Positions 8,186-63,702 of a stretch of DNA of 64,000 nt are shown piece by piece (position 1 is the stretch's first letter; every line of letters begins with the position of its first letter). This DNA is from Candidatus Enterousia sp. (GTDB lineage Bacteria > Pseudomonadota > Alphaproteobacteria > Rs-D84), in contig JAZQCF010000008.1 of assembly GCA_045546075.1 (NCBI GenBank), positions 17,137-81,136 on the forward strand, written 5' to 3'. The notes below the pieces were generated by a model, which worked only from the letters and a program-made list of their open reading frames with translations, made no database searches and was not told where the DNA came from. Position numbers and translations under genes: made by a program.

Positions 8186-9430
8186 ATGAAACATTTATTC
8201 AAAATACTTGGACCAATTTGTGCATGTGTTGTCGGTGCATCTGCGTATGGGGTATCGGCGGGAACGGTTGCGAATAATGCCGCCCGTGGCATTATAAATC
8301 CAACTGTGGCGATTGGCACGGCGGGAACGCTGCGCGGGAACCAGGGATTGGCCAACGCATATAAACAAAATATGCGTAATACGTATTATATGGTAAATGT
8401 TCCCGACGTGGACAGTGCGTGCCGCACCAAAATCGATAAATGTTTAACCGATTATTGTGGTGATATAACCGTTGTCCCGGGCCAGGTTTCTGGTCGTTGT
8501 GCATACGCCACGGAAAGTGAATTATATAATTATGTCTTGTTGTGTCTGCGTAATGATACATCAATGTTGTTGCCGAACTATGCGGCGGGAACCAAGATGG
8601 GTGTGGGTGGCGTGAATACGGCGGCACACCTGTGTCCATCCTATGTCCAACAAGAATTAATGGCGTGGCTTTCTATGTCAAATATGGCGAACGAATTAAC
8701 CAAGGCACATTCGCCCCAGTGCCTGCAACGTCGCCAGGAATTAGAGGCCGCATTATCGTGTCACGCGGTTGCGTTGGCATATGGTAACGAAACATCCAGT
8801 ATGTTAATGTCGCAATTAACTGATTTTTGTGGCGCGGGCGTTCCGGGTGGTTCGGCCGAAATGGTTTCGCGTTTTGCGAACGCCGGAAACGTCGGGGCAA
8901 ATATTTGGGGCTGGGCGGAAAAGATTGTTAGCCTGGATATGAACAAAAAGGCGGCTGATTGGGAAACGGCGGTTGATGCGGTATTGGCATCATATACGAA
9001 TCGTATGAATTTGGCGTGTGGTGAAGATATGCAATTAAATTTGCCGGCGCGTGACAGTTCGAATAATAATTCTGGCCTGCAAACGGCGGCGGCGATTGCG
9101 GCAACTGTGGCATTCCCGGATACACAAAAAAAAACTAACAACGATGCCGTAAAGTCGGGAATGTTTTTGGAAATAAAATCCCGCCAAGAAATCTATGATT
9201 ATCCAACCGCAAATACCGTGGTCCAGGCGGGATTAACAAATTCTGTCCTGACACAAAATGCGTTCTTTACCCCATCCCAAATGGATGATATGCAAAACGC
9301 GTACAAGGCGGGGACAAATGTATTCATCTTGCGCGACAGCACGCGTTGCTTTATTGTTCCGGTTGCGGAAATGACGGCGGCGGAAAAATCTATGGTTGCG
9401 CAACAATTCGGCACATGTATTTATAAGTAG
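8186..9430 (+). CDS. Secreted cysteine-rich hypothetical protein (414 aa)
   Basis: GAGAGG RBS, signal-like MKHLFKILGPICACVVGASAYG, many Cys; no family recognised. Confidence 0.55.
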   Translation: MKHLFKILGPICACVVGASAYGVSAGTVANNAARGIINPTVAIGTAGTLRGNQGLANAYKQNMRNTYYMVNVPDVDSACRTKIDKCLTDYCGDITVVPGQVSGRCAYATESELYNYVLLCLRNDTSMLLPNYAAGTKMGVGGVNTAAHLCPSYVQQELMAWLSMSNMANELTKAHSPQCLQRRQELEAALSCHAVALAYGNETSSMLMSQLTDFCGAGVPGGSAEMVSRFANAGNVGANIWGWAEKIVSLDMNKKAADWETAVDAVLASYTNRMNLACGEDMQLNLPARDSSNNNSGLQTAAAIAATVAFPDTQKKTNNDAVKSGMFLEIKSRQEIYDYPTANTVVQAGLTNSVLTQNAFFTPSQMDDMQNAYKAGTNVFILRDSTRCFIVPVAEMTAAEKSMVAQQFGTCIYK

Positions 9431-9572: not shown

Positions 9573-9896
9573 TTATTCTTCAAATGGGGCAAATCCGTAT
9601 TCGGCCAAGATACCGTTATATAAATCGTACCAATTTGGATTTTTTTCTATTATCAATCGAATTTTCCAATTACGGTGCCATTCTTTTAATTGACGTTCGC
9701 GTGCGACCATATTTTCCAGGCTGTCATACCATTCCACATATACTAATTTATCAAGATTGTGTCTTGCGGTAAAACTTTTTGGATAAATTTTCTTTTTATG
9801 TTCATACACACGTTGAATTATATTTGACGTGGAACCGATATACAATGTTCCATTTCTTTTATTCGTCATAATATAAACGCAACCACCATCTTTCAT
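9573..9896 (-). CDS. GIY-YIG nuclease superfamily protein (UPF0213/YhbQ-like, 107 aa)
   Basis: VYIMTNKRNGTLYIGSTSNIIQRVYEHK (GIY...YIG), then RERQLKEW. Confidence 0.8.
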   Translation of the reverse strand: MKDGGCVYIMTNKRNGTLYIGSTSNIIQRVYEHKKKIYPKSFTARHNLDKLVYVEWYDSLENMVARERQLKEWHRNWKIRLIIEKNPNWYDLYNGILAEYGFAPFEE

Positions 9897-9947: not shown

Positions 9948-10015
9948 TCCAGATACCCGTCATCCCGGCGAAGGCCGGGACCCAGGCCGAGCGATAGCGA
10001 GGACTTGCGTCGCAG
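9948..10015. repeat. Right inverted repeat of GIY-YIG cassette
   Basis: TCCAGATACCCGTCATCCCGGCGAAGGCCGGGACCCAG..., with a compensated hairpin TCCCGGC-GAAG-GCCGGGA. A partial extra copy CGTCATCCCG lies at 10028-10037. Confidence 0.8.
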
Positions 10016-10047
10016 ACATTCATATTTCGTCATCCCGAATTTTTTTG

Positions 10048-10077
10048 TTTGGAATAAAAACCGATTCGTGTTATAAT
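10048..10077 (+). promoter_or_regulatory. Promoter of paralog F1
   Basis: TTTGGA, 18-nt spacer, TATAAT. The spacer and start region (CCGATTCGTGTT...GAACCAAT) are homologous to the promoters at 18033 and 51494. Confidence 0.5.
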
Positions 10078-10146: not shown

Positions 10147-10971
10147 ATGAGAATCAAATCCTCGATAATGATTGGTGTGCTGGTGTCGGTTATGACATTA
10201 TGCGCGGCATTCGCGGACAGCGTTGTTACATCCAAATCATATGTTGATGCGCAAGACGCATTAAAGCAAGATAAAATCACCGCCGGGACCAGGGGCAGTG
10301 TTGTTACATATGCAGGCGAGGTTGGTGGTTATGCGCAATTTGGTGAGATGCGGGTTAATGATAGTTCTTTTGAGTTAGGTTCAAGTGTTAACGAGCTGGC
10401 TACGACTGGTCTATTGGTACCTCCGTATCAGCTTTTAGAAGATATAAGTGTAATCAATTCTAATGAAGTTCTCGTGCGTGCTGTACATGCTGGTGGGTCT
10501 TATGTTGAAGGTTTGGCGATTTTTTCGTCGGACGGGACATATAACGCCGGTACAGATGCCGATAAATTGGCAACAATGGGCGCGGTAATGGCCAGTATGG
10601 CGGCATCCGGATCGCAACCGGCATTATCCGGAACCAATGGTGCAATCGTCACATATGGTAATGCCCCCGGCGTGACGGGTGAGCGTAAGATTTTGTCAGA
10701 ATGGTATCAACCATTCGTTCCAGGCGTAACCGCAGGCAATGGCGATCATCTTGTTGATGCACAAAGTGTGATGGGTGTTGTATACACCATTGGAAATCGA
10801 CCCATCAGCGTGATGGAATGTGCGGATGGTGAAAATGTATCGGATGAGGACTGTATGTTGTGGCATATTTCACAAAGACACGTCTTATCATGGCCATCAA
10901 ATGCTGGTTATCAACGCTCTCCGTTTATCAATAGTAGTGAATTCCCATCATATGAACCGTATAATCCATAA
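10147..10971 (+). CDS. Secreted YVD/CLLW-family protein, paralog F1 (274 aa)
   Basis: Signal peptide ending AFA, then TSKSYVDAQDALKQDKITAG..VVTY, TMGAV, and C-terminal CMLW. Confidence 0.7.
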   Translation: MRIKSSIMIGVLVSVMTLCAAFADSVVTSKSYVDAQDALKQDKITAGTRGSVVTYAGEVGGYAQFGEMRVNDSSFELGSSVNELATTGLLVPPYQLLEDISVINSNEVLVRAVHAGGSYVEGLAIFSSDGTYNAGTDADKLATMGAVMASMAASGSQPALSGTNGAIVTYGNAPGVTGERKILSEWYQPFVPGVTAGNGDHLVDAQSVMGVVYTIGNRPISVMECADGENVSDEDCMLWHISQRHVLSWPSNAGYQRSPFINSSEFPSYEPYNP

Positions 10972-10989
10972 TAAAAATAATTATGACCC

Positions 10990-11024
10990 ATGTCCGTTTT
11001 CTTTTGAAAACGGACATTTTTTTT
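10990..11024 (+). terminator. Intrinsic terminator
   Basis: ATGTCCGTTTT...AAAACGGACAT followed by T8. Confidence 0.85.
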
Positions 11025-14630: not shown

Positions 14631-14668
14631 CACTAACCACTATCCACTTACACTAACCACTAACACTA
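14631..14668 (-). repeat. Heptamer-type stop-rich repeat (TAGTGGT-like) overlapping the smpB stop codon
   Basis: Minus strand: TAG TGTTAGTGGTTAGTGTAAGTGGATAGTGGTTAGTG. The same core recurs at 51468, 53602, 59944 and 60068. Confidence 0.75.
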
Positions 14669-15133
14669 GTGTTTCATCAACCGTGCTTTATCTTTTTCCC
14701 ATTCGCGGCGTTTTATTGTTTCCCGTTTGTCGGTGCGGTTTTTGCCAAACCCAACCCCCAGTAATACCTTTAATTTTCCGTGATTGTTAAAATACAGTTT
14801 TAACGGAAATATGGTTGCCCCTTTCTCGTTCAATTTGCCGATTAAACGATTTATCTGGGCCCGGTGCAGTAATAATTGACGCGGGCGGCGTTCATCAAAA
14901 TTTATATATCGCGCCGCGGTTGGTAAACGCTGAATTTCGACACCGGTCAAGAACAAATTGCCGCCGCGGTTTTGGACGAACCCATCTACAATCGTAACCA
15001 AACCATATCGCACAGATTTAATTTCCGCACCCGTCAGGGCGATTCCGGCCTCGATAGTGTCTTCCACAGTATAATTGAACCGCGCCTTGCGGTTTTCGGA
15101 AACGGCACCAAATTTTATCATATTCCGTGGCAT
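14666..15133 (-). CDS. smpB: SsrA-binding protein
   Basis: NRKARFNYTVEDTIEAGIALTGAEIKSVR... Confidence 0.9.
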   Translation of the reverse strand: MPRNMIKFGAVSENRKARFNYTVEDTIEAGIALTGAEIKSVRYGLVTIVDGFVQNRGGNLFLTGVEIQRLPTAARYINFDERRPRQLLLHRAQINRLIGKLNEKGATIFPLKLYFNNHGKLKVLLGVGFGKNRTDKRETIKRREWEKDKARLMKH

Positions 15134-16790: not shown

Positions 16791-17975
16791 TTATTTACCG
16801 AAAATCATAACCATAATATTTTTCCACGCGCGTCCAAAGAATTGAATTTTTGACACTTTGTTTTTCGCAACCAGTTTTCCACGCGCAATCACGCGCCCAT
16901 TTTGTTCTGCGATAATTTCGCCCAACGTGTCGCCAACGCGTACCGGCGCGGCAACCGGGTCATTGTATCGTGCCAATACACGCACCCCGCGTAAACCGGC
17001 ATCTTTGCCGGTTGTAACCGCAAATGTCTTGTCAACGGTTGCAACAACGGTGTCCGCCCGCCCGTACCAAACGGGCACATTTGTCACATCGTCGCCCGGG
17101 CGATAGAACACGCGTGTTGCGGTGGTTGTGAACCCGTGGGTCAGCAATTTTTTCATCTCGGCCGCCAACCCATCGTGTCCTTTGCCGTTAAATCCGTTTA
17201 TAACCCCGATTAAGCGACGACCGCCGGATGTGGCACTGGCCACCATACCATAGCCGCCTTTGTCCGTATGCCCGGTCTTTAATCCATCCGCCCCCGGCAT
17301 AATAAACAGCAATTTATTATAGTTCACTGTATGTGTCCGTCCCCAATCGCGGCACCAATCGGTCTTATAATCATTAAATTCAAACCGTTTCGTTGCGAAC
17401 ATAGGGTATAAATCCGGATAGTCTGCGATTAAATGATACGCCAGTGTTGCCAATTCCCGACTTGTCATCAAATTGTTTGGATTGGGCAATCCCGACGCAT
17501 TCCCAAATGTAGATTGTGGCATACCGATTGCGCGCGCCTTGGATTGCATCATTTCTGTAAATTTAACCTCGGTCCCCGCCAAAGATTCGGCAACAACAAC
17601 GGATGCATCACCCCCAGATAAAACGATTAATCCCAAAATCACATCACGCACACTAATTGTTTGCCCGGCGGACAGGCAAATCTTGCTTGCCGGGTACCAT
17701 TCGGGTTTTTGATAGTCCGCATTTTCGCCAACGGTTAATTTATCGTCCAAGGACAGTTCGCCGGATTTAATTTTATCGAACAACACCGCCAACGTCATCA
17801 GTTTCAGCATCGAAGACGGTGGCATCAGTGTATCGGCCGCCTTGGTCACAATTTCGGCACCGGAATCATAGTCAATTAAAAACGCGGATTTTGCGGTTGT
17901 CTTGAATTCTGCCGCGCCCGCGGTCGTGGTTGCGGCAACGATAAACGATAAAATCGTGGGATAAATCTTTTTCAT
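16791..17975 (-). CDS. D-alanyl-D-alanine carboxypeptidase (PBP5/6-like, peptidase S11)
   Basis: Signal peptide, SSMLK (SxxK) and KTGHT motifs. Confidence 0.85.
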   Translation of the reverse strand: MKKIYPTILSFIVAATTTAGAAEFKTTAKSAFLIDYDSGAEIVTKAADTLMPPSSMLKLMTLAVLFDKIKSGELSLDDKLTVGENADYQKPEWYPASKICLSAGQTISVRDVILGLIVLSGGDASVVVAESLAGTEVKFTEMMQSKARAIGMPQSTFGNASGLPNPNNLMTSRELATLAYHLIADYPDLYPMFATKRFEFNDYKTDWCRDWGRTHTVNYNKLLFIMPGADGLKTGHTDKGGYGMVASATSGGRRLIGVINGFNGKGHDGLAAEMKKLLTHGFTTTATRVFYRPGDDVTNVPVWYGRADTVVATVDKTFAVTTGKDAGLRGVRVLARYNDPVAAPVRVGDTLGEIIAEQNGRVIARGKLVAKNKVSKIQFFGRAWKNIMVMIFGK

Positions 17976-18032
17976 ACCTTTATCATAACAACAAGATTTT
18001 TCATTTCAAACAGATTTTTTATAAAAATGCGC

Positions 18033-18062
18033 TTGACCCCGATTGTGCATTTTTGATAAAGT
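18033..18062 (+). promoter_or_regulatory. Promoter of leader copy 1 / F2
   Basis: TTGACC, 18-nt spacer, TAAAGT. Homologous to 23943 and 51494. Confidence 0.55.
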
Positions 18063-18067
18063 GTATT

Positions 18068-18290
18068 TGAACACGGATGGGAATCCGGTTCGGGGCCCTG
18101 AGAAGCCCATACTATCCGGTGCCAAGGACATCGTAATTCCACGATTTCCATTTTTTGGCATCGATATATTCCCCGAATTTGTTGGTTCGGGGTGCGGTGG
18201 TTATATAACAGGCATTGCCGAAGCCCACTGGGATTACTGATAGTATGATTTCTCAACGCCCCGACCGTCATTTCCATTGACGGTTCTTTT
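18068..18290 (+). promoter_or_regulatory. Structured 5' leader copy 1 (candidate riboswitch/attenuator) with terminator 18264-18290
   Basis: One of three homologous leaders with covarying hairpins (18119-18161, 18171-18192). An antiterminator segment overlaps the terminator ACCGTCA...TGACGGT-TCTTTT. The TSS is inferred. Confidence 0.6.
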
Positions 18291-18318
18291 ACACCAAAAT
18301 GGAAAGGGGGAGTACACA

Positions 18319-19074
18319 ATGCACAAAAAATTACTGTTCGGTTTAATCGGCGCGATTGTTGCAACAAACGCATTTGCGAACCAAATTGTCACAAGTCAAA
18401 CATACGTTGATAATATGGACGCATTAAAACAAGATAAAATTACCGCCGGTACCACAGGGGCGGTTGTCACATATAATGGCGAGATAGACGGTCAGGCACA
18501 ATTCAGCGAGCAGGCGATTTATGATGGTACAACAACATATGATGCCACGACAGATGCGAATAAACTTGTTACCGCCGGGGCGGTATCAAATATGGCACCG
18601 GCATTACCAACCGGAACGGCAAACGCCGCGGTTACATACGATGCCAACGGTAATATTGGCGGCGAACGGGGGATTTGGTCCTATGATTATCAATTTTATG
18701 GAGGCAGTGTCGACTATATGCAATCTTTTAAAGATAATTTAACTACGCTCGATAGTGTTAGAAGCGCGCTAGATTATGTGTCAACGGATATAACCAGTGT
18801 TATGCCGAATGGGGATAGTGCAACCAGAATGCTACCGGTGTTTAGGAACGACTATGATTCGCAGTATTCTAATAAAGATAAGTTTTGGAAAGTGATGATT
18901 ACAAATTCAATCAACGGGGAAAATAAGTGGGATACGTATAATTTAATTCCAAGTCTTATGGCGGTAAATGCGGGGTTGGATACCAAACAATCCAAAAAGG
19001 TTTGTGTCCGTTGGTTGCCAGATGTCGTCGAACAAACGGATGAAACCTGCCTGTTGTGGGATTTGCCGGACTAG
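18319..19074 (+). CDS. Secreted YVD/CLLW-family protein, paralog F2 (251 aa)
   Basis: GGGGGAG RBS, signal ending AFA, VTSQTYVDNMDALKQDKITAG..VVTY, TAGAV, C-terminal CLLW. Confidence 0.7.
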   Translation: MHKKLLFGLIGAIVATNAFANQIVTSQTYVDNMDALKQDKITAGTTGAVVTYNGEIDGQAQFSEQAIYDGTTTYDATTDANKLVTAGAVSNMAPALPTGTANAAVTYDANGNIGGERGIWSYDYQFYGGSVDYMQSFKDNLTTLDSVRSALDYVSTDITSVMPNGDSATRMLPVFRNDYDSQYSNKDKFWKVMITNSINGENKWDTYNLIPSLMAVNAGLDTKQSKKVCVRWLPDVVEQTDETCLLWDLPD

Positions 19075-20318
19075 ACGCGCGTTCCAATCAATACCCCACC
19101 ATCCGTGCCTGTGATTTTTATATCGCAAATTGTGCGGGCGGGAATTGGTGCGCCGGAAATGCGTACCGGAATGTCGTCCGGTGTGCGCGCCATATTGTTT
19201 GATTCCACCATAACCGATGTCCGCGTCCCGACCAAGCCCGCCATAAATTCGCGCATATTTTCCGCCGCCGCATCGGTTATGATTTTAACGCGCCGTTTTG
19301 ATTCACTGCGCGGAACCTGGTTTTCCATTTCCGCCGCAACTGTGCCGGGGCGGGGCGAATACGGAAACGCGTGAACACGAATTGGTTTTAATTCGCGCAC
19401 CAATGATAAGGTTTCGTTAAATAATTCGTCTGTTTCCCCCGGAAAACCACAGATTATATCCCAACCGAAACTAACCCGGCTGGCCGCCAGTTTTACCAAT
19501 TCGCGTACCGTGTCCGCCGTGTGCCGCCGCCGCATCGCCCGCAAAATTGTATTTGAACCCGACTGCATAGAAAGATGCAGGTGCGGCATAAAACGTGCAT
19601 CGGTTTTCATCATTTCAATAATGTCACGAATAATCGGTACCGCCGGGTCAACCGAAGAGAGTCTCAACCGCCGTAACCCCGGCACATCATCTAATAACCG
19701 CCGGCACAGGTCATTTAACAAAAATGGCCGGCCATCATAATTCTTAATATATGATGCCGCATCTACACCGGTCAGGACAATTTCCCCAAATCCGTCCTTG
19801 GTCGCGCGGCATACGTCCGCCAATATATCATCGTATTCAAATGACACCGCCGGCCCCCGCAACAGGCGCGTCACACAATATGTGCAATCGTGATTGCAAC
19901 CATTTTGAACCTGGACAAACTTTTTCGATAATTCTGTGGTGCCGTCAAAGTTTCCCGCGAACGAATTGCCGCGTGTGCAGTCAGCCGACGCGCCCAAATA
20001 TGCACTCGGGTTCATCTTTTGCGCGTTGGGAATAACAACCGTGCCGGGAATTTTTTGAAACATTTCCGGGTTGCGTGTCGCGCCGCACCCGGTCACAAAG
20101 ATTGTCATGCCGGGATTTTCGCGTGCAATTTTTCGCACCGTTTGGCCACATTGACGTTCGGCTTCCCCGGTGACGGAACAAGTATTCACAACAACGCCGC
20201 AAATTCCGTGCGCCGCCAACATATTTTTTATCTTTTCGCATTCCAACGCGTTCAGCCGGCAACCGAAAGACAAAGTTTTTATATCATTTTTATCATTTTC
20301 TACTTGCATTTTTACCAT
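19071..20318 (-). CDS. mtaB: Radical-SAM methylthiotransferase (MiaB/MtaB family)
   Basis: FGCRLN N-terminal domain and CNHDCTYC radical-SAM cluster. Its stop overlaps the F2 stop (CTAG). Confidence 0.75.
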   Translation of the reverse strand: MVKMQVENDKNDIKTLSFGCRLNALECEKIKNMLAAHGICGVVVNTCSVTGEAERQCGQTVRKIARENPGMTIFVTGCGATRNPEMFQKIPGTVVIPNAQKMNPSAYLGASADCTRGNSFAGNFDGTTELSKKFVQVQNGCNHDCTYCVTRLLRGPAVSFEYDDILADVCRATKDGFGEIVLTGVDAASYIKNYDGRPFLLNDLCRRLLDDVPGLRRLRLSSVDPAVPIIRDIIEMMKTDARFMPHLHLSMQSGSNTILRAMRRRHTADTVRELVKLAASRVSFGWDIICGFPGETDELFNETLSLVRELKPIRVHAFPYSPRPGTVAAEMENQVPRSESKRRVKIITDAAAENMREFMAGLVGTRTSVMVESNNMARTPDDIPVRISGAPIPARTICDIKITGTDGGVLIGTRV

Positions 20319-20368
20319 CCTTGGGGCATTATAGCGAGACGAAAATATATTTCAACAAAGGATTTATA

Positions 20369-20758
20369 ATGGCACGTACAACAAATTCTGACACATTACC
20401 ATTTGTGGAAAGCAGATATGAACTGGGGATGCTGGCATCTCAGCGGGTTCGCGATTTGAACGGTGGGGCCACACCGGTTGTGGAACGTGGAAACGACAAA
20501 CCAACGGTGACGGCGCTGCGCGAAATTGCAAGTGGAAAATTAGATGTCGCAAATTTGCGTCACGAATTTGTGCAATCTTACAAAGAAACACCGGTTGTTG
20601 AAAATGCCGAAGAAACGCTTGAAGTCAACAGCGTTGACCCGGCACTGCGCGAAATTGACGCGGAATTGGAAGAATCATTGGTGACCGAAGACCCGGTTGA
20701 TGCCGCCGATTTGGTTGCCGAAGATGTCGCCGACGATGATTCGGGTGACGACGAATAA
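20369..20758 (+). CDS. rpoZ: RNA polymerase omega subunit with acidic tail
   Basis: SRYELGMLASQRVRDL core and a C-terminal D/E-rich extension. Confidence 0.75.
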   Translation: MARTTNSDTLPFVESRYELGMLASQRVRDLNGGATPVVERGNDKPTVTALREIASGKLDVANLRHEFVQSYKETPVVENAEETLEVNSVDPALREIDAELEESLVTEDPVDAADLVAEDVADDDSGDDE

Positions 20759-20770
20759 ATAACTGAATCC

Positions 20771-20861
20771 GGAGATGTCGCATAGTTGGTCTAGTGCGCC
20801 ACATTGGAAATGTGGTATACGGGCAACCGTATCAAGGGTTCGAATCCCTTCATCTCCGCCA
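20771..20861 (+). tRNA. tRNA-Ser (anticodon GGA)
   Basis: GGAGATG acceptor, anticodon arm CCACA-TTGGAAA-TGTGG, long variable arm, GGGTTCGAATCCC, CCA encoded. Confidence 0.9.
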
Positions 20862-20869
20862 CAAAAATC

Positions 20870-20896
20870 AAACGCCCATTTGGGCGTTTTGTTTTT
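20870..20896 (+). terminator. Intrinsic terminator after tRNA-Ser
   Basis: AAACGCCCA-TTT-GGGCGTTT followed by TGTTTTT. Confidence 0.7.
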
Positions 20897-21004
20897 GTGT
20901 TGTCGATTCCGGGATTCGAACCCGGGGTTAAGGGTTCGAACCGCAGCCGAAAGGCAGACGAGAGTCGGCCGGTGAGCAAAGCGAATGAGGCAAGGTGGCG
21001 AAGC

Positions 21005-21023
21005 AATCCCTTCATCTCCGCCA
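21005..21023 (+). repeat. 19-nt direct duplicate of tRNA-Ser(GGA) 3' end
   Basis: AATCCCTTCATCTCCGCCA is identical to 20843-20861. Confidence 0.8.
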
Positions 21024-21029
21024 GAATAA

Positions 21030-21068
21030 AATCTTAAAAATCCGCGACTGCGGATTTTTTGATTTTAT
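21030..21068 (+). repeat. 39-nt direct repeat (copy 1) containing a terminator hairpin
   Basis: AATCTTAAAAATCCGCGACTGCGGATTTTTTGATTTTAT is identical to 21202-21240. Confidence 0.85.
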
Positions 21069-21069
21069 A

Positions 21070-21086
21070 GGCGGAGATGAAGGGAT
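21070..21086 (-). repeat. Inverted copy of tRNA-Ser(GGA) 3' end
   Basis: GGCGGAGATGAAGGGAT is the reverse complement of ATCCCTTCATCTCCGCC. Confidence 0.75.
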
Positions 21087-21201
21087 GTGTGCGAGCGCAG
21101 CGCAGCACACAATCCGCGAATAAACAATTAGAAAAATCATAAAAATCGCCGGAACAAGATTTTTATAGATTTTAATTATTGTTTATCAAGACAACCAATT
21201 T

Positions 21202-21240
21202 AATCTTAAAAATCCGCGACTGCGGATTTTTTGATTTTAT
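21202..21240 (+). repeat. 39-nt direct repeat (copy 2)
   Basis: Identical to 21030-21068. Confidence 0.85.
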
Positions 21241-21329
21241 GTTTTGGAAATTCTTGGTAAAAAATCCACTTGCCCGGTGCGGGGAAAATCTGTATCATAG
21301 ATTCCCGTAGAGCAGGGGAACAATTTATT

Positions 21330-23936
21330 ATGAAATATCGTGGATTGACCGCCGCCGCGGTCACGCAAAGTCGCGAAAAATATGGCGCAAACACTATGCC
21401 GGAACCACATGCGAAAACCGCATGGGAATTTTTATTGGATGTGTTTCGCGATAAAATAAACATTATTTTATTGATAATGACGATTATATTCGCGGTCCTT
21501 GCGATATTGGGCTTTGGCGAATTAACCGAGGCATTGGGTATCGGGGCGGTCTTGGTTATTGTATGTGTTGTAAATGTTATTACCCACCTGCGCGCGCAAC
21601 ACAGTACCATCGAACTGCGTCGCCGCGCATCAAAACAGATGTGCAATGTCGTGCGTGCCGGACGCGTGCGCAACATAGACAGCACAGAAATCGTCGTTGG
21701 CGATATAGTTTTAATTTCGGCGGGCGAAACAATTCCGGCCGATGGATATATCGTATCGGGACATGTGGAAGTAAATAATTCCGTCCTTAATGGCGAAAGT
21801 GATGAAGTTCATAAATCACCGGTTGCAAATTTCAAGTATAACCGCGATGCCACCGTGACGGCGGATGATTATACCGATGCGAATCATGTCTTTGCGGGAA
21901 CAACGGTTCATGGCGGCGGGGGCGCAATGATTGTGACGCGCGTTGGCATGGACACCGAAAATGCAAAAATCTTGCGCGCGGTCGGCGATGTCCGCGAAGT
22001 AAAAACGACATTACAATTACAACTGGACCGGGTTGCGCGTGTAATTGGAAAATTTGGTGCGATATGTGCGATTGTGGTTGCGGCGTGTATGATAATATTT
22101 CACCTGGTCGCGTCCAATGCGCACGGCGTTGGGAACATTGTTTATATTGTTGTGTCGGCGATAACACTGGCATTGACGATTTTTGTTGCCGCCGTTCCCG
22201 AAGGACTGCCGTTTATCATAGAAATCATTACATCCCAAAATGCACACAAAATGACACGGGCGAATCTGTTGGCAAAAAATCCCCATAAAATCCCAGAGGC
22301 CGGAAATATACAATTACTCTGTACCGACAAAACCGGCACGATTACATTTGGCCGTATGCAGCCGGTTGCAAATTACCTTGGCGATGGGACAAATGTCGGG
22401 TTTGCGGTCCGGTCGATTGGTGCCACGGCCGAAATTGCGAATAATATCGTCCTGAACGGGCGTGCAATGTTGGATGCAAACGGCAATATAGTCGGCGGAA
22501 ACACGACGGAAAGGGCGCTGTTCGGGGCAATGAATTTAACTGCGCACCGCATCGCAACCATTCGCCGCGAAAATCATATCGTTGCAAAAATCCCATTCGC
22601 CAGTGCACATAAATTTTCGGCCACAACCGTGCGCGGTCCAAACGGCACGCGAACATATGTTATGGCGGCCCCAGAAATCATATTGGCGCACGCGAACCGG
22701 TATATTGATACGGATGGTGCGGTTCATTCTATGCGCGGGTCCAAGGTAAAACGTTTAATGGTGTCAAATGCGCGCCGTGCGATGCGTGTAATTGCAACCG
22801 CGTATTATGATGGCGCAATATCGGGTAATGCCGTGCCAGACAATTTGGTCTTTATTGCGTTGTCCATTATGCGGGACGAAGTTCGCCCCGGTGTCGCCGA
22901 TGTGGTTGGCGCGATGCATGAATCGGGTGTTCGTGTTATGATGATAACGGGCGATAATTTGGAAACCGCGCGGGTTATCGCAACGGAATCGGGCATCATA
23001 TCAAACGACCAAGACATCGCAATATCGGCCACCGAATTTGATGCTTTGCCGGATGCGCGGGCGCGTCGAATGTTGCCCAAGATATCTGTGATTGCGCGTG
23101 CAACACCATACACTAAATTGCGCATGGTTGAATTGGCGCGTATGGATGGAATAAGTATAGGTATGTGTGGCGACGGCACGAACGATGCGCCGGCACTGCG
23201 CGCCGCCGATGTGGGCTTTGCCATGGGCGACAGTACCGATGTATGCAAAGGCGCAAGCGATATAATCATTGTCGATAATAATTTTATATCTATCGCGAAC
23301 AGTATTTTGATGGGGCGCACATTTATGCATAATGTGGTTGGATTTTTGCGGTTTCAATTACCGATAAACTTTATCTTGGTCGCGGTCAGCATTCTGTTCC
23401 CGCTGTTTTTAGGCTTTGATGCGATAATGGCGGTCCAGATTTTGATTATAAACATTATTATCGACAGTTTGAATTCTTTGGCATTTGGTGGCGAAGCGGC
23501 ACGACCCGAATATATGCGCGAACCCGTGCATGGTAAAAATTCGCCATTGATTACGCGTGAAACATTGCGCGGTGTTATTTGGACAACGGTGGTCGGCGTG
23601 TTCATAGTGTCCATTACCACAACGCCGGCGGCAATGCGTTTGTTTGGCAATGCGGACGTGGCGTTGTCGGCCCGTTTCGCATTGATAATTATTGTTGCGA
23701 TGTTAAATGGTTTTTGCGTGCGTGCGCCGGGGTATAATATATTTTCGGGATTGCGTGCGAACCCAATGTTTGTGGCGGTGGCGGCGTTTGTGTTTGTGGG
23801 AACATACCTGTGCGTGACATTTGGTGGCGCGGCATTACACCTGACCCCAATGGGGTGGGAACAATGGTTTGTTGTTGCGGGATTGGGACTGTGCGTTGTT
23901 CCATTAAATATGCTTTATAAAAGAATCTTTCGATAA
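21330..23936 (+). CDS. P-type cation-transporting ATPase (Ca2+/P2-type-like)
   Basis: AGGGGAA RBS, CTDKTGTIT phosphorylation site, MITGDN, GDGTNDAPAL, multiple TM segments. Confidence 0.85.
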   Translation: MKYRGLTAAAVTQSREKYGANTMPEPHAKTAWEFLLDVFRDKINIILLIMTIIFAVLAILGFGELTEALGIGAVLVIVCVVNVITHLRAQHSTIELRRRASKQMCNVVRAGRVRNIDSTEIVVGDIVLISAGETIPADGYIVSGHVEVNNSVLNGESDEVHKSPVANFKYNRDATVTADDYTDANHVFAGTTVHGGGGAMIVTRVGMDTENAKILRAVGDVREVKTTLQLQLDRVARVIGKFGAICAIVVAACMIIFHLVASNAHGVGNIVYIVVSAITLALTIFVAAVPEGLPFIIEIITSQNAHKMTRANLLAKNPHKIPEAGNIQLLCTDKTGTITFGRMQPVANYLGDGTNVGFAVRSIGATAEIANNIVLNGRAMLDANGNIVGGNTTERALFGAMNLTAHRIATIRRENHIVAKIPFASAHKFSATTVRGPNGTRTYVMAAPEIILAHANRYIDTDGAVHSMRGSKVKRLMVSNARRAMRVIATAYYDGAISGNAVPDNLVFIALSIMRDEVRPGVADVVGAMHESGVRVMMITGDNLETARVIATESGIISNDQDIAISATEFDALPDARARRMLPKISVIARATPYTKLRMVELARMDGISIGMCGDGTNDAPALRAADVGFAMGDSTDVCKGASDIIIVDNNFISIANSILMGRTFMHNVVGFLRFQLPINFILVAVSILFPLFLGFDAIMAVQILIINIIIDSLNSLAFGGEAARPEYMREPVHGKNSPLITRETLRGVIWTTVVGVFIVSITTTPAAMRLFGNADVALSARFALIIIVAMLNGFCVRAPGYNIFSGLRANPMFVAVAAFVFVGTYLCVTFGGAALHLTPMGWEQWFVVAGLGLCVVPLNMLYKRIFR

Positions 23937-23942
23937 AAGTCC

Positions 23943-23971
23943 TTGACCGGGATATGCGTTTTTGATAGAAT
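23943..23971 (+). promoter_or_regulatory. Promoter of leader copy 2 / F3
   Basis: TTGACC, 17-nt spacer, TAGAAT. Confidence 0.6.
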
Positions 23972-23977
23972 AGCAAA

Positions 23978-24190
23978 TGAATCGGATGGGAATCCGTTTC
24001 GGGGCTGTAGCAGGCCTATGTGTATCCGGTGCAATGCATCGTAATCCGTTGCGATTTCCGTGTTTTTGCACCGCAATATTACCCCAATAGTGGTTGGGGT
24101 GCCGGTGGTGTATATATAAATATCATCGGGATCGTTGATACACATGATTTGCTAACACCCCGACCGTCAATTCCCATTGACGGTTGTTTT
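23978..24190 (+). promoter_or_regulatory. Structured 5' leader copy 2 (candidate riboswitch/attenuator) with terminator 24163-24190
   Basis: Homologous to 18068-18290, with hairpins 24028-24072 and 24082-24099. A 10-bp alternative helix GGTTGGGGTG:CACCCCGACC overlaps the terminator stem. Confidence 0.6.
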
Positions 24191-24212
24191 ATACCAAAAA
24201 AGAGGGAATTCA

Positions 24213-25097
24213 ATGAGCAAAAAATTACTTTTCGCCATAATCGCGACAATTTGTACCACCACCGCATTCGCAGATTCAAAAACTATAACGACCCAGGATT
24301 ATGTAGATACAAATTTCCAAACAAAGATTCCCGCTACATCATCAGATCTTGAATGGGTAACAAAAACTTTGGTGGCAACAACGGACACCGCCGGTCAAGT
24401 TGAACAAATAGGGGTTTATAGTTCTGATCTAGAAGATTACGGTGGTAGTAGTTATTTGCCACAATACAATTTGGATATTAATAGTTTCAACATGATTAAC
24501 AATGTTATTCCTACATATGCAAGTACGTATATGGATAAAGAGCAGCTTCGGCTTGATATGTATGGGAATATGCAAATACGAATTCCCAGAAGTGGTGAAA
24601 TAGTATACGAATATGGGGTTGGCGACAATGGTCCCTATACAAGTTCGTTAACAATGACTACTTGGAATAATCCTTGGTGGTTGCGTAATGATGTCAAAGG
24701 GACCGGTTTGGTTACCAAAACAAGTACCGATGGCGGTGTTGGTGAACGTCAAATTATTGAAACGGCGGATGTTGCAAATTATGGGACCGGCACCGCCACC
24801 GAACAACAAATTCAAGAAATATCTATTCCCACAATGGGGGCGGTTATGGCGGCAATTTCAAATAATACCCCCTCATTACCAACGGGGACGGCGGGAAATG
24901 TCGTCACATATAACGCATCCGGTCAAATCGGTGGTTCGGTTGCAACATATAACGGTTCGACCACATACAACGCATCAACCGATGCATCGAAAATCGCGGT
25001 TATGTCCGCGGTGCAACGCAAAATGACCTGTGCGCAGTATGTTCAAAATGCCGCAGAAACACCGGAAAACTGCCTGTTATGGAACGTGCTAGATTAA
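24213..25097 (+). CDS. Secreted YVD/CLLW-family protein, paralog F3 (294 aa)
   Basis: Signal ending AFA, TTQDYVDTNFQTKI, NVVTYNASGQIGG, TMGAV, C-terminal TC...NCLLW. Confidence 0.7.
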   Translation: MSKKLLFAIIATICTTTAFADSKTITTQDYVDTNFQTKIPATSSDLEWVTKTLVATTDTAGQVEQIGVYSSDLEDYGGSSYLPQYNLDINSFNMINNVIPTYASTYMDKEQLRLDMYGNMQIRIPRSGEIVYEYGVGDNGPYTSSLTMTTWNNPWWLRNDVKGTGLVTKTSTDGGVGERQIIETADVANYGTGTATEQQIQEISIPTMGAVMAAISNNTPSLPTGTAGNVVTYNASGQIGGSVATYNGSTTYNASTDASKIAVMSAVQRKMTCAQYVQNAAETPENCLLWNVLD

Positions 25098-25103: not shown

Positions 25104-25272
25104 TCCAGATAATTGTCATCCCGCGGCATCGGGCCCCGCAAAATTTGAAAAAAATTTTGTGGGTGGTCTAACGCGGGATCTCGTCAGTATCGTCGTGAAT
25201 CAAAGAGATCCCGGCCTGAATCACCCACAAAATGCGTTCGCATTTTTCGGGGCCCGATGCCGCCGGGATGAC
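25104..25272. repeat. MITE-like nested palindrome (four-way-junction architecture) sharing its terminus with the GIY-YIG cassette
   Basis: It starts TCCAGATAATTGTCATCCCG (compare TCCAGATACCCGTCATCCCG at 9948). The 24/25-nt outer arms 25115-25138 and 25248-25272 enclose three internal hairpins. Confidence 0.75.
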
Positions 25273-29087: not shown

Positions 29088-29999
29088 ATGCAAGAAATCA
29101 TTGATGAATTTACGAACTATTTAATCAAGACGCGTAATTATTCGGGCCATACGGCCACGGCCTATGGGATGGATATTGATGATTTCTGCCGATTCTTTGA
29201 ACGTTTTAATGGTGCGGCGGTCGGTGTGCGTGATTTTGCGCACGCCGACACAATTTGTTTTCGGGCATGGTTGGCGGACCGGCAAAAGCGTGAATTGGCG
29301 TTCAAATCTACGGCGCGCGCATTGTCGGCATTGCGTGGGTTTTATAAATATCTGGCAAAGCATTATGATATAAAAAATGATGCGATTGGTTTAATATCTT
29401 CACCACGAATTCCAAAAAAATTATCCAAGGCAATAGATGCCGGTGATGTTGCCGATATGGCGGGTGCAATACGTGTTGTTGATGGGGGTGAACCATGGAT
29501 TGCGGCGCGTGATTGGGCGTTGGTAACATTGCTGTTTGGGTGCGGGTTACGCATATCTGAGGCATTGGCATTAAAAAATCGCGATGTCGCACATGCGCCG
29601 GAATCACTGCGCATTTTGGGCAAGGGGTCCAAGGAACGCATAGTTCCCGTGTTACCGGCGGTGAATACGGCGATAAAAAAATATATGGATGTGCGTCCAT
29701 GCGGAAATGCACCGGATGATGAATTGTTTCGCAGTGTTCGGGGCCTGCCCATGTCGGCACGTATGGCGGAAAAAGTCATTGAAAAATTGCGTGCGTATTT
29801 GCAATTACCGGACTATGTGACACCACACGCGTTACGCCATACCTTTGCGACCGTGTTATTGGCAGATGGCGCGGATTTGCGCAGTCTGCAAGAATTACTG
29901 GGACATTCATCACTTTCTACAACGCAATTATATACCAAGGTAAATATGGCGGAAATTATGGATATTTATGAACATTGTCATCCACGCGCCGGGGAATAA
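29088..29999 (+). CDS. XerC/XerD-family tyrosine recombinase
   Basis: ARDWALVTLLFGCGLRISE, HALRHTFAT, LLGHSSLSTTQLYT. Confidence 0.85.
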   Translation: MQEIIDEFTNYLIKTRNYSGHTATAYGMDIDDFCRFFERFNGAAVGVRDFAHADTICFRAWLADRQKRELAFKSTARALSALRGFYKYLAKHYDIKNDAIGLISSPRIPKKLSKAIDAGDVADMAGAIRVVDGGEPWIAARDWALVTLLFGCGLRISEALALKNRDVAHAPESLRILGKGSKERIVPVLPAVNTAIKKYMDVRPCGNAPDDELFRSVRGLPMSARMAEKVIEKLRAYLQLPDYVTPHALRHTFATVLLADGADLRSLQELLGHSSLSTTQLYTKVNMAEIMDIYEHCHPRAGE

Positions 30000-51420: not shown

Positions 51421-51467
51421 ACACTAACCCATTGTCGCGACGGAGCACACAAAGTGTGCGTAGACGG

Positions 51468-51487
51468 AACTAACACTAACCACTAAT
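51468..51487 (-). repeat. Stop-rich heptamer repeat copy (orphan)
   Basis: Minus strand TTAGTGGTTAGTGTTAGTT, the same 18-nt core as at 53602. Confidence 0.7.
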
Positions 51488-51493
51488 TTTCTC

Positions 51494-51525
51494 TTGACCC
51501 CGAATCGTGTTTTTTGTTAGAATGT
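51494..51525 (+). promoter_or_regulatory. Promoter of leader copy 3 / F4-F5
   Basis: TTGACC, 18-nt spacer, TAGAAT. Confidence 0.6.
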
Positions 51526-51531
51526 ATTTGA

Positions 51532-51730
51532 ACCAATGGGAAGCCATTCTCGGTTCGGGCTGTCGTAGGCCCACATCTTGGACGGCACACAATTTTTTTG
51601 GGTGTGCCAAATACCCCGCCTGTCGGGGTGCCGATGGTTATAATGCGCTGTCAAAAGGCCTATCGGGATCAACTTCCAAGATGTGATTTACGAACACCCC
51701 GACCGTCTGTTTTCCACGACGGTTTATTTA
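51532..51730 (+). promoter_or_regulatory. Structured 5' leader copy 3 (candidate riboswitch/attenuator) with terminator 51702-51730
   Basis: Homologous to copies 1 and 2, with compensated hairpins 51584-51608 and 51614-51628. GTCGGGGTG:CACCCCGAC is an alternative helix. The terminator is ACCGTC...GACGGT-TTATTT. Confidence 0.6.
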
Positions 51731-51774
51731 TACACAAAACAATCCCTGTGAGGGGGAAAGGAGAAAAACAAGCG

Positions 51775-52329
51775 ATGAAAAATTCCAAAATTCTATTATT
51801 TGGCGCGGTGGTGTCGGTATTGACATCGGGCGCATTTGCCGCAACAACAACCCAAACCGTCACGACCCGGGGTTATGTTGATACCGCGGTTGCGACCAAA
51901 CAGAATAAATTATCCGGCACGTCCGGTTATGCCGTCACATACGGCGCAAGCGCGGGTACAACGGATGAACGGCAAATCGTAACATCACTTGGGTCGGACA
52001 CGACGGCGACGACATTGCCGACAACGGGCGCGGTGGTTGCGGGCCTGAACGCTAAACAAAATACATTAAACGGCGCGGCAAACAGTGTTATTACATATAC
52101 CGGCACGGCGGGCGGCACCGGTTCCAAGGGTGTGTACCAGGCATCAGGTTCGTATTCATCCCAAACAAACAATTTGGCCGAGGCCGGACATGTAAACACG
52201 GCGGTTGCGAACGCGTTTAATGCACATTTAACATGCAATACATACGCAACGCCGGGTGATAGCAGCAGTGATTGTTTGCTCTGGAATGTGAACAATTTGT
52301 CGGGCACATATATGCCAGAGAATCAATAA
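51775..52329 (+). CDS. Secreted YVD/CLLW-family protein, paralog F4 (184 aa)
   Basis: GGAG RBS, signal ending AFA, TTRGYVDTAVATKQNKL, AVTYG, TTGAV, LTC...DCLLW. Confidence 0.7.
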   Translation: MKNSKILLFGAVVSVLTSGAFAATTTQTVTTRGYVDTAVATKQNKLSGTSGYAVTYGASAGTTDERQIVTSLGSDTTATTLPTTGAVVAGLNAKQNTLNGAANSVITYTGTAGGTGSKGVYQASGSYSSQTNNLAEAGHVNTAVANAFNAHLTCNTYATPGDSSSDCLLWNVNNLSGTYMPENQ

Positions 52330-52425: not shown

Positions 52426-52442
52426 AAAAAAGGACAGAGAAT

Positions 52443-53459
52443 ATGAAACTATCAAAATACGGTTTTAATGTTGCATTGGCTTTATTATTGGTGCCAGGAA
52501 TTATAGGTTCTGCATTTGCTGACACGGGCACAATAACCAGTCGTGAATATGTTGATGATTTGTTGGATACCAAACAGGCGCAAATTCCTGCATTAAACAC
52601 GAACACAATTGTTACATATGGCACAAGCGATGGAGTGATTGGTCAACAAACGATAGTAACCGCGCTGGGGACGGACGCAACGGCGACAACATCCCCAACC
52701 GCTGGCGCAGTGAATACCGGATTAAGTGCAAAACAAAATATAGCGAACGGTACGGCGAACTATGTTATGACCGGCACCGGCACCGCCGGCACACTCGGCG
52801 AAAAACCGGTCTACAGCGCGACAACAAACTACACAAATGCCTTGGTGACGGCACAAACAATCAACACCGCCGCCATGGACGCCGCCAACAGTGAACTGAC
52901 CTGTATCGATAACGATTGCCTGCTGTGGCAGATTCGCACCACAACCCCATCCGGCCTATCCATACGAATAGATTTTAATCCAGACACAAGTATTAGCGGG
53001 ACATCTGTTTGTTGGCGTAATTTATCTAATGAAGGAAACTATGCAAATTACGATGGTACATGCAGCGCATCAACATTATCATATATTGGGGCCAGTGGAA
53101 GCAAAAGTGGCAAATGGGGGACAGTATTTTCGTATGGAGACGTTAGCGGGATAAGTGTGTGTAGTTCAACAACAAAAAATTCGGTGGGGACAATAGTTGC
53201 CACGGATGCACAGGCAGCGGTATTAGACAGTGAGTATCTTGCACAAACGGGTATCGGACTCGGTGATACGGAATTAAATACAAATTACCATTGTTGGTGT
53301 AAAATGGAAAATCCCGGAACTTCAAAATGGATTTATGTACGGACTTTGAACTATGGTGGTACCAGATGTTCCGATATATGTGTAAATGATTGCGCGCGCG
53401 ATGTACGGGACAATAGTAGTGGCAATTTTAGGACAACCATGTATGGCACGATAAATTAA
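52443..53459 (+). CDS. Secreted YVD/CLLW-family protein, paralog F5 (338 aa) with extra Cys-rich C-terminal domain
   Basis: Signal ending AFA, TSREYVDDLLDTKQAQI, IVTYG, TAGAV, LTC..DCLLW, then ~170 additional aa. Confidence 0.7.
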   Translation: MKLSKYGFNVALALLLVPGIIGSAFADTGTITSREYVDDLLDTKQAQIPALNTNTIVTYGTSDGVIGQQTIVTALGTDATATTSPTAGAVNTGLSAKQNIANGTANYVMTGTGTAGTLGEKPVYSATTNYTNALVTAQTINTAAMDAANSELTCIDNDCLLWQIRTTTPSGLSIRIDFNPDTSISGTSVCWRNLSNEGNYANYDGTCSASTLSYIGASGSKSGKWGTVFSYGDVSGISVCSSTTKNSVGTIVATDAQAAVLDSEYLAQTGIGLGDTELNTNYHCWCKMENPGTSKWIYVRTLNYGGTRCSDICVNDCARDVRDNSSGNFRTTMYGTIN

Positions 53460-62988: not shown

Positions 62989-63004
62989 AAAAAAATAAAA
63001 TAAA

Positions 63005-63022
63005 CGCGGGGTTTCGCCCCGC
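63005..63022. terminator. Bidirectional terminator
   Basis: GCGGGG-TTTC-GCCCCGC with A/T runs on both sides. Confidence 0.7.
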
Positions 63023-63029
63023 ATAATTT

Positions 63030-63644
63030 TTAATTTGCAACATTCCATAACAAGCAGTTTACGTCGGTATGGTCGGCACCATCCACCCATTGTGCACAGG
63101 TCATTTTATTTTGTTTGGAACTTATTGCTGTATAAACAGCGCCATCGGTTGGAATATCGGTCCCGCCATTTGCAACGGTGGTTACGATTTTCTTAACCCC
63201 CGGTTCACCCACACCAATGCCATATGTCACCAATGAACCGTTCGGATAAGCTGTTTCGTTATTTTTCCTAAGAGAATCTTGTTTATTTCTCCACAAATCC
63301 TCTATCGCATCCGCCACCAGTGTAACAGTTGGCACAACGGTATCGTAATCCCGACCTTCAGTTTCTTTATCTAAAAATCTTAATTTGGATTCATTGAATT
63401 CCTCTACTGTATAACTGTCCAAAATACCAATTTTGTTTCCTGTTAATTCCCCGTCATAATAAGAAACCAACGCAGGCAATGAATCATAACTTGTTTCAAC
63501 ATAGCCCGTTGTGATTTTATCTTGTTTTGTTTCCAGCGCGTTATCAACATATTGTCGTGATGTCACGGTTGATGTTGTATCTGCAAAAACTGAATTTATC
63601 GCGATTATTGATGCGATTGCACCAAGTAATAATTTTTTGCTCAT
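63030..63644 (-). CDS. Secreted YVD/CLLW-family protein, paralog F6 (204 aa)
   Basis: AAGGGGAA RBS, signal ending VFA, VTSRQYVDNALETKQDKITTG, LVTYG, TDGAV, KMTC...NCLLW. Confidence 0.7.
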   Translation of the reverse strand: MSKKLLLGAIASIIAINSVFADTTSTVTSRQYVDNALETKQDKITTGYVETSYDSLPALVSYYDGELTGNKIGILDSYTVEEFNESKLRFLDKETEGRDYDTVVPTVTLVADAIEDLWRNKQDSLRKNNETAYPNGSLVTYGIGVGEPGVKKIVTTVANGGTDIPTDGAVYTAISSKQNKMTCAQWVDGADHTDVNCLLWNVAN

Positions 63645-63674: not shown

Positions 63675-63702
63675 GTAACAAAAACGAACGTTTTTTGTAA
63701 CC
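63675..63702. promoter_or_regulatory. 27-nt palindromic site 1 upstream of F6
   Basis: GTAACAAAAACGAACGTTTTTTGTAACC, near-identical to 63783-63809. Confidence 0.4.

Follow-up and report, generated by a model that had tools for sequence, protein, structure and literature searches.

Six repeat proteins of Candidatus Enterousia with signal peptides belong to a large, lineage-restricted family, and a conserved leader RNA precedes several of their genes

A 64-kb stretch of a Candidatus Enterousia contig (JAZQCF010000008.1; the whole stretch is called the window here) contains six genes, F1 to F6, whose products begin and end alike and differ in their middles. An earlier note on this DNA, made from the sequence alone, read them as one family of secreted proteins, perhaps a variable surface or host-interaction family, and was reminded of phage tail fibers. 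Here, we ask what these proteins are, where they may act, and how their genes may be controlled. The answer that we favor, with a probability of about 0.5, is that they are exported, disulfide-capped rods of the envelope or cell surface that act as variable contact proteins, and that they are partly co-regulated by transcription attenuation. See Table 1 for the coordinates of the genes and their control elements.

The six genes are true paralogs of a large, unnamed, lineage-restricted family. All six open reading frames (ORFs) are open at the positions first noted for them, and every start is an ATG. Longer ORFs that begin with TTG are present for F2–F6. We prefer the ATG starts because they fit the family alignment, because a ribosome-binding site of the GGAG/GGGGA type lies 6–12 nt upstream of each of them, and because the longer ORFs of F2–F4 would cross the terminator hairpin of the leader RNA described below. 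Pairwise phmmer comparison of the six gives E values of 1e-29 for F4–F5 and 1e-23 for F1–F2, with most other pairs at 1e-6 to 1e-13. The weakest pairs are F3 and F5 against F1 or against each other (1e-3 to 0.2). When a profile of the six sequences was run against the six-frame translation of the window, it recovered exactly F1–F6, with the next match at E = 0.15, which bears out the single six-member family first proposed. Together, the six genes take up 7.3% of the 64 kb. The mature proteins are rich in Gly, Thr, Ala, Ser, and Asn (39–61% of residues across the six), and this richness is all that could be said for chance or non-coding ORFs whose similarity is an artifact of composition. That idea is refuted by the pairwise E values down to 1e-29 and by hundreds of relatives with conserved motifs, and it also has against it a confident AlphaFold model and the ribosome-binding sites, promoters, and terminators found at the expected places. 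We give it practically no chance.

By inspection, each of the six proteins has the hallmarks of Sec export and cleavage by signal peptidase I, including an M-x-(K/R)-rich start, 12–17 hydrophobic residues, and a small-x-small site. The signal peptides end, from F1 to F6, in AAFA, NAFA, TAFA, GAFA, SAFA, and SVFA, in keeping with the (A/V)FA ending first described, and the cleavage region reads (A/V)FA followed by D, N, or A. The mature chains are acidic in all six. They have exactly two cysteines, both in a C-terminal loop, except for F5, which has 10. Eight of these 10 lie in the C-terminal head of F5, which confirms the extra Cys-rich domain claimed for it. A lipobox, with its Cys at position +1 of the mature protein, was not found in any of the six; all cysteines of the mature chains are C-terminal. 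Furthermore, a scan of the six proteins and of 10 long relatives found neither a YadA_anchor nor an Autotransporter domain, while the same scan detects an Autotransporter domain in a protein of the related contig L082.

The mature proteins are built from a repeat of ~50 residues. Each unit has a short helix, T-x-x-Y/A-V-x-x-x-L-x-x-K-Q, followed by a Gly/Thr-rich β-hairpin, G-x-VVTY-x4-G-x2-GER-x-I. In the first unit, the helix is the conserved TSxxYVD...KQDKI, and in the last, the C...C[L/M]LW cysteines close the hairpin that follows the helix. Between the first and the last, units and inserts vary in number and kind, so that the design of conserved start and end modules around variable middles holds across all six. 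Most of the motifs listed in the earlier note find their place in this repeat. The VTY..G..GE(R/K) motif corresponds to the hairpins, in each of the six, and T(M/A/T/D)GAV is found in helices of all six. Two motifs needed correction. YVD...KQxK(I/L) is exact in F1, F2, F4, and F6 and deviates in F3 (YVDTNFQTKI) and F5 (KQAQI). Likewise, all six have the Cys pair and the (L/M)LW after it, and the T written before the first Cys is found only in F3–F6, with E in its place in F1 and V in F2.

We used AlphaFold to model F4, the minimal member, and F5 as single chains only, with alignments of 97 and 44 sequences, respectively. The F4 model has a mean predicted local distance difference test score (pLDDT) of 80.9 and a predicted template modeling score (pTM) of 0.51. 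After the signal-peptide helix, it shows three units: a helix at residues 32–42 with strands at 52–56 and 63–69, a helix at 84–95 with strands at 104–108 and 115–120, and a helix at 137–150 with strands at 152–157 and 167–172, where the hairpin is closed by Cys154–Cys167. These three units agree with the ~50-residue repeat read in the sequences. In F5, the C-terminal head (residues ~181–338) is predicted with confidence as an α/β domain (pLDDT ~90). A Foldseek search shows a best E value of 6.5 for the F4 model against the PDB and best E values of 1 or above for the F5 model against the PDB and BFVD, both queries being monomer models of elongated proteins. Because neither model matches anything in these databases, the predicted fold of the family appears to be without recognizable relation to any solved structure.

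The family extends well beyond the window. An indexed protein search found 95 clusters related to the six, all labeled “hypothetical” and without Pfam domains. An exhaustive profile search found 828 cluster representatives (at 50% identity) with E ≤ 1e-3, including 677 with E ≤ 1e-10. Since these 828 range from 157 to 2278 aa, and the long members show 6–10 matched stretches per protein, the family is large, diverse, and modular. Neither the six proteins nor long relatives gave a significant match in Pfam, NCBIfam, or PHROGs (for the six, nothing below E = 0.02 in Pfam and PHROGs). The sole match in a sequence search of the PDB was a designer pentatricopeptide repeat protein, which we rejected as an artifact of the VVTYN repeat. 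A clear assignment to an already characterized family, which the earlier note held would overturn its interpretation, was looked for in Pfam, NCBIfam, PHROGs, the PDB, and Foldseek matches, and was not found. In the library of papers searched, we found none describing the family or its leader RNA, and among the papers on Enterousia none on surface proteins. As a protein family this is new; as a type of system, an expanded variable family of exported proteins in a reduced genome, it is already known.

Much of the modularity lies at the C-terminal end. The closing C.LW loop is carried by 90 of the 95 close relatives. Nine of these 90 end no more than 12 residues past the loop, 40 have tails of 13–100 residues (17 knottin-like with at least four Cys, 21 Pro/Tyr-rich as in F1), and 41 have a head that exceeds 100 residues and contains six or more Cys. 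Additionally, about a third of the close relatives have a related Cys-rich domain ahead of the first YVD helix. In one subgroup (P0084, at 660–1727 of contig L023; P0146; and genes of L044 and L124), the Cys loop and end are replaced by another C-terminal domain of 200–350 aa with the motif YTELEYIE..GTQYI. Another relative, P0119, has two copies of a different inserted module, YFYGTG.GAADTATKTVSI... Neither the domain nor the module has a Pfam or phage match. From their motifs, these C-terminal and internal modules of P0084, P0146, and P0119 were suspected of being phage-fiber-like; this was dropped, as their contexts are chromosomal and the phage searches were empty.

The tails and heads invite a different explanation, in which the proteins are secreted soluble effectors or toxins, the rod being a delivery part or scaffold and the variable or Cys-rich ends acting on partners or competitors. 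Many relatives have knottin-like, Cys-rich tails, one of them (P0090) has a weak match to a spider-toxin family (PF07740), another has a weak Dickkopf-like match, and the 41 large Cys-rich heads would fit as well. However, five of the six window genes end at or soon after the closing loop and have no extra domain, no toxin or enzyme family was detected in the scans, and no immunity-like small gene follows the window genes. We consider this explanation improbable for the family, with an effector or toxin role possible for the members that have knottin-like tails.

The family is restricted to Candidatus Enterousia-like bacteria (order Rs-D84, Alphaproteobacteria) of the gut and rumen, with genomes of ~1 Mb. 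In a collection of species-representative genomes, relatives were found only in metagenome-assembled genomes from rumen and gut (RUG14636, RUG585, RUG10747, RGIG3338, and RGIG8116). These have up to nine family loci per genome, a number to be read as “at least” because just two N-terminal peptide patterns served as bait. Scaffolds of 0.69–1.0 Mb carry some of the relatives. The Obg protein of the window shares 89% identity with ObgE of Candidatus Enterousia scatequi and 86–95% with many entries named “Alphaproteobacteria bacterium.” Members of Candidatus Enterousia and Rs-D84 have genomes of ~0.75–1.0 Mb, no flagella, no respiratory chain, and an incomplete glycolysis, and they are without standard transporters and most biosynthesis; they have been proposed to be obligate symbionts or parasites that take metabolites from other cells (PMC12306168). 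A bioRxiv paper on the symbionts of rumen ciliates does not cover this lineage.

Except for the F4–F5 tandem, the six genes are scattered singly among housekeeping genes. Their neighbors in the window include an AmiC-like amidase, DacA, MtaB, a Ca-type P-type ATPase, rpsD, TrpS/TyrS-type and CysS tRNA synthetases, TrmD, GdhA, L25, RsmD, TadA, Obg, rubrerythrin, peroxiredoxin, and SmpB. Four further family loci, in other contigs, likewise have chromosomal housekeeping neighbors. Family members occupy differing chromosomal positions in related genomes. In L023, P0084 adjoins prfB, a position taken by a different gene in the window, and L023 has no F1 between the gene of a 414-aa protein and the amidase.

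These surroundings bear on the idea that the genes are domesticated phage tail fibers, or fibers of a tailocin or gene transfer agent. The family does share the general design of phage and viral fibers, as its members are elongated, repetitive, Gly/Thr-rich rods with a conserved N-terminal, attachment-type module, variable distal parts, and sometimes a globular head. The YVD...K motif that first suggested fibers may also recall fiber repeats. In contrast to fibers, all family members have Sec signal peptides, which argue against a virion protein, and their repeat is a helix plus hairpin in the monomer model rather than a demonstrated trimeric β-structure. No phage, prophage, or tailocin cluster and no phage neighbor was seen at any locus examined (the window and the four other loci). 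Furthermore, a tblastn search of two long relatives against 50,697 GenBank phage genomes gave no match, a pattern scan of IMG/VR found no relative, and there was neither a PHROGs family nor a fold match in BFVD or the PDB. The tail-fiber likeness is thus one of general design only, and we regard a fiber origin as very unlikely.

Alleles or orthologs of F1 from other samples are block mosaics. Compared with P0004, the first 44 and the last ~145 residues of F1 are ~99% identical, and the middle is unrelated and of a different length. Compared with P0005, the first ~185 residues are ~96% identical, and the last 90 only ~45%. These mosaics indicate an exchange of modules between alleles or paralogs. 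We also compared the DNA of the six genes and their flanks for gene conversion among the window paralogs, and found no long identical or near-identical tracts. In the shared modules, DNA identity among the six is ~70%. Recent gene conversion among them was therefore rejected, and we consider the paralogs old, with no ongoing gene conversion seen here. As for switching machinery, the six genes and their flanks have no near-identical tracts resembling silent cassettes, and no invertible promoters or slippage repeats were seen in the upstream regions. Two contigs from RNA sequencing (RNA-seq) runs, X1 and X4, join 18449 to 24894 (the 5′ part of F2 with the 3′ part of F3) and 24200 to 18316 (the end of the F3 leader with the start of F2). 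Both may be artifacts of assembly across conserved modules, or they may reflect true hybrid paralogs in other strains.

Close parallels to this pattern are the variable surface protein families of other reduced-genome bacteria, such as the Vlp/Vsa/Vsp lipoproteins of Mycoplasma, Msp2/P44 of Anaplasma, and Vls of Borrelia. There, too, a ~1 Mb genome has many paralogs that keep an export or N-terminal part in common and vary in the rest, with mosaic alleles. Unlike these, the present family has no lipobox; silent cassettes, invertible promoters, and phase-variable repeats were not seen; and its paralogs are old, at ~70% DNA identity.

Next to the proteins themselves, the window has a second shared element, a structured leader RNA upstream of F2, F3, and F4–F5. 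F4 and F5 are probably co-transcribed. The three upstream regions have a common layout, with a promoter-like TTGACC-N17/18-TA(G/A)A(A/G)T with a TG extension, followed by a leader of ~220 nt. The 3′ end of the leader is a hairpin, GACCGUC-loop-GACGGUU, with a U-run, 25–50 nt upstream of the ribosome-binding site or start codon. A covariance model of the leader found no copy before F1 or F6, and these two genes appear to be under different control. The F3 leader has a predicted folding energy of −92.4 kcal/mol (see Table 1 for its z score). RNAalifold was run on an alignment of six leaders, without the F4 leader and that of L140. It predicted 60 pairs, with compensatory changes in 26 of them. 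In a pair-count control, 94.6% of the cells are paired, compared with 34–48% when the partners are slid, and the 26 compensatory pairs drop to 5–7; none of 500 shuffles reached the observed values. The leader structure is conserved and strongly covarying.

Further copies of the leader were gathered by a pattern scan of metagenomes for the terminator and by nhmmer. With the covariance model, 12 leaders are credible: the three of the window and those of L002, L032, L044, L124, L082, L140, L146, L001, and L014. The last three form a diverged class (class 2). As a negative control, ~100 unrelated, high-GC loci with the exact terminator string score at most 25.8 bits. Ten of the 12 leaders lie directly upstream of family genes. 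The other two copies, also diverged, have different genes behind them. The L082 leader precedes a 1242-aa autotransporter with Chlamydia-PMP repeats (L082 719–4444), and the L140 leader precedes a secreted Cys-rich protein (L140 210–560) with weak, eukaryote-like matches of the ephrin-receptor and tumor necrosis factor receptor (TNFR) kinds. A search of the window against Rfam at gathering thresholds gave only transfer-messenger RNA (tmRNA) and tRNAs, and the F3 leader, searched at E ≤ 10, gave only a chance CRISPR-DR match of 14 bits.

The leader also contains a possible switch. An internal hairpin has GGUCGGGG as its 3′ strand, and this strand can alternatively pair with CCCCGACC, a segment overlapping the terminator 5′ arm. 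In class-2 leaders, both strands change together, to GGUUGGAG and CUCCAACC, and these two compensatory changes keep the antiterminator pairing. Because this pairing would compete with the terminator 5′ arm, we propose conditional termination; most likely, the leader sets expression through a terminator/antiterminator arrangement. Two other mechanisms were tried and rejected. Against leader-peptide attenuation, L082 and the class-2 leaders lack the AUG of the first hairpin, and class 2 does not conserve the GGA loop of a CsrA-type mechanism. A 133-aa ORF on the opposite strand (17972–18373), without a family match, overlaps both the promoter and the leader of F2; it is unlikely to be a gene.

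In design, the leader resembles the terminator-type riboswitches and attenuators before adhesin or pilin genes, such as cyclic di-GMP riboswitches. These, too, have a long, conserved, covarying 5′ leader with an intrinsic terminator and a competing alternative helix, before genes for exported or surface proteins. However, the leader described here has no Rfam match even at E ≤ 10 and is found only in this lineage. We therefore describe it as a new candidate cis-regulatory RNA of a known kind.

Four polyA RNA-seq runs labeled “gut metagenome” contain contigs that are 95–99% identical to the window. They cover the leader and 5′ end of F2 (18119–18414), the 3′ end of the F3 leader and the 5′ end of F3 (24156–24416), and the F4 leader, F4, the spacer, and the first half of F5 (51439–52895). 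The contigs depart from the window sequence at the variable parts, and none lies over the F5 head. Several other copies of the leader share only the terminator segment. These contigs are weak evidence for transcription of the leaders and the 5′ parts of F2, F3, F4, and F5.

Taken as variable contact proteins, the family might work as follows. The proteins would be exported by Sec and cleaved by signal peptidase, after which the Cys pair would be oxidized and the chain would fold into a long rod, located in the envelope or at the cell surface. A common docking end may be provided by the conserved start module, and the variable middle and the optional Cys-rich heads could give binding or antigenic diversity for contact with partner cells. 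F2, F3, and F4–F5 would each be transcribed from a TTGACC-type promoter through the shared, terminator-ended leader, which would respond to a signal by conditional termination and thereby set expression. The suggestion of a variable surface or host-interaction family fares well in part. A variable family with signal peptides and mosaic alleles is what we find, in a lineage with a proposed partner-dependent lifestyle, and a surface location and host binding are plausible. The best indirect support for a surface role is that the same leader precedes a Pmp-type autotransporter.

Several points weigh against this interpretation. The F4 model is a monomer with a pTM of only 0.51, and the rod part of F5 is poorly predicted (pLDDT 40–60), with the shallower alignment of 44 sequences. 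As the six genes and their flanks share no near-identical DNA tracts, gene conversion does not seem to be under way among them. On the RNA side, the data are low-depth contigs assembled from polyA libraries, and DNA carry-over is possible because one contig starts upstream of the predicted promoter. Attenuation, too, is proposed from sequence alone. Finally, the proteins could stay in the periplasm, since they have no lipobox, β-barrel anchor, or recognizable sorting signal for crossing the outer membrane.

With no evident route across the outer membrane, the chief alternative is that the proteins are exported but stay in the periplasm or envelope in a structural or scaffold role, such as inter-membrane spacers or cell-wall rods. 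They would then not be surface adhesins, and their variation would stem from relaxed constraint instead of selection. Signal peptides with no outer-membrane targeting feature would suit this role, and several copies adjoin peptidoglycan genes: F1 an AmiC-like amidase, F2 DacA, and P0064 an SLT-domain gene. However, mosaics with ~99% identical flanks around unrelated middles look less like drift than like diversifying exchange, knottin-like and Cys-rich heads are added in the family, and the leader it shares also drives a Pmp-type autotransporter, a bona fide surface protein. We judge the periplasmic role rather unlikely, though it is the most serious of the alternatives.

Among known surface proteins, the contact rods that we favor may be compared with the YadA/Hia trimeric autotransporter adhesins and the Chlamydia Pmp-like autotransporters. 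These are also modular, repeat-built exported proteins of the adhesin type with swapped head and stalk modules, and a Pmp-type autotransporter lies behind the same leader in a related contig. However, the family differs from YadA/Hia and from classical autotransporters in having no β-barrel translocator or anchor in the six or in the 10 long relatives scanned, and its members here are much smaller (184–338 aa).

Rs-D84 bacteria, including Candidatus Enterousia, are common in the guts of livestock and other animals, have genomes under ~1 Mb, and are proposed to live off other cells (PMC12306168). The family is an obvious candidate for their contact apparatus because it takes up ~7% of the window, its diverse relatives number in the hundreds, its alleles are mosaic, and some members add Cys-rich heads. 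The shared leader offers a handle on the signal that would be sensed before surface proteins are displayed, and in vitro tests of it need no culture of the organism. A bolder proposal, which is possible though we lean against it, is that the rods, with their helix-hairpin repeats, disulfide cap, and exchangeable Cys-rich heads, are a structurally new kind of surface rod by which Enterousia and Rs-D84 attach to and exploit other cells. In that proposal, the leader would be a new riboswitch class, or the target of a new RNA-binding regulator, that switches a surface-protein regulon (the family, the Pmp-type autotransporter, and secreted Cys-rich proteins) on a host or partner signal.

Table 1. 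Positions of the six family genes and of the predicted control elements in the window
Feature	Position	Strand	Description
F1	10147..10971	+	274 aa; signal peptide cut after AAFA; two helix-hairpin units, inserted middle, Cys225-Cys236 loop, Pro/Tyr-rich tail
F2	18319..19074	+	251 aa; family member
F3	24213..25097	+	294 aa; family member with long insert after first helix
F4	51775..52329	+	184 aa; minimal member; three helix + β-hairpin units, the last closed by Cys154-Cys167
F5	52443..53459	+	338 aa; F4-like rod (residues 27-166) and C-terminal α/β head of ~160 aa with 8 of 10 Cys
F6	63030..63644	-	204 aa; family member
Leader RNA of F2	18069..18289	+	covariance model 211.7 bits; terminator hairpin ~18263-18285
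Leader RNA of F3	23979..24189	+	covariance model 217.2 bits; fold z = -5.67; terminator hairpin 24161-24186
Leader RNA of F4-F5	51530..51728	+	covariance model 90.2 bits; terminator hairpin ~51701-51724
Promoter-like site before F1	10049..10077	+	TTGGAA-17-TATAAT, ~70 nt before F1; no structured leader there
Promoter-like site before F2 leader	18033..18062	+	TTGACC-18-TAAAGT, TG-extended
Promoter-like site before F3 leader	23943..23971	+	TTGACC-17-TAGAAT, TG-extended
Promoter-like site before F4 leader	51494..51523	+	TTGACC-18-TAGAAT, TG-extended
Terminator-like hairpin after F1	10990..11017	+	downstream of F1
Terminator-like hairpin after F6	63004..63024	-	downstream of F6
21-bp palindrome ACAAAAAACGnnCGTTTTTGT, two copies	63678-63698, 63785-63805	-	upstream of F6; only copies in the window

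Other features of the window lie close to the family genes. The pair of ACAAAAAACGnnCGTTTTTGT palindromes upstream of F6 are possible operator sites for a dimeric regulator. Small elements resembling miniature inverted-repeat transposable elements, with terminal inverted repeats CGTCAT(C/A)CCG...CGGGATGACG, are found at 9959–10037, 25115–25272, and 52332–52424, and also near 9523 and 49916. They adjoin F1 and F3, one of them fills the entire spacer between F4 and F5, and a similar motif lies upstream of P0084 in L023. Just upstream of F1, on the opposite strand, the ORF at 9573–9896 has a weak N-terminal likeness to GIY-YIG/group I intron endonucleases (E = 1.6e-6, below the cut-off). A matching ORF is absent, as is F1, from the syntenic locus of L023 between the 414-aa gene and the amidase. 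The 414-aa protein itself (8186–9430, + strand) has a signal peptide, many Cys, and no Pfam or NCBIfam match, and its gene adjoins that of the AmiC-like amidase, as it does in L023. It looks to be another lineage-specific exported protein.

Farther from the family genes, a tyrosine recombinase of the XerC/XerD type (29088–29999, + strand; Phage_integrase plus SAM-like N-terminal domain) lies among housekeeping genes and is probably the chromosome dimer resolvase, not the integrase of a mobile element. The window also has a two-piece (permuted) tmRNA of the alphaproteobacterial kind at 1533–1874 (− strand) and SmpB at 14666–15133 (− strand), both of which confirm an origin in the Alphaproteobacteria.

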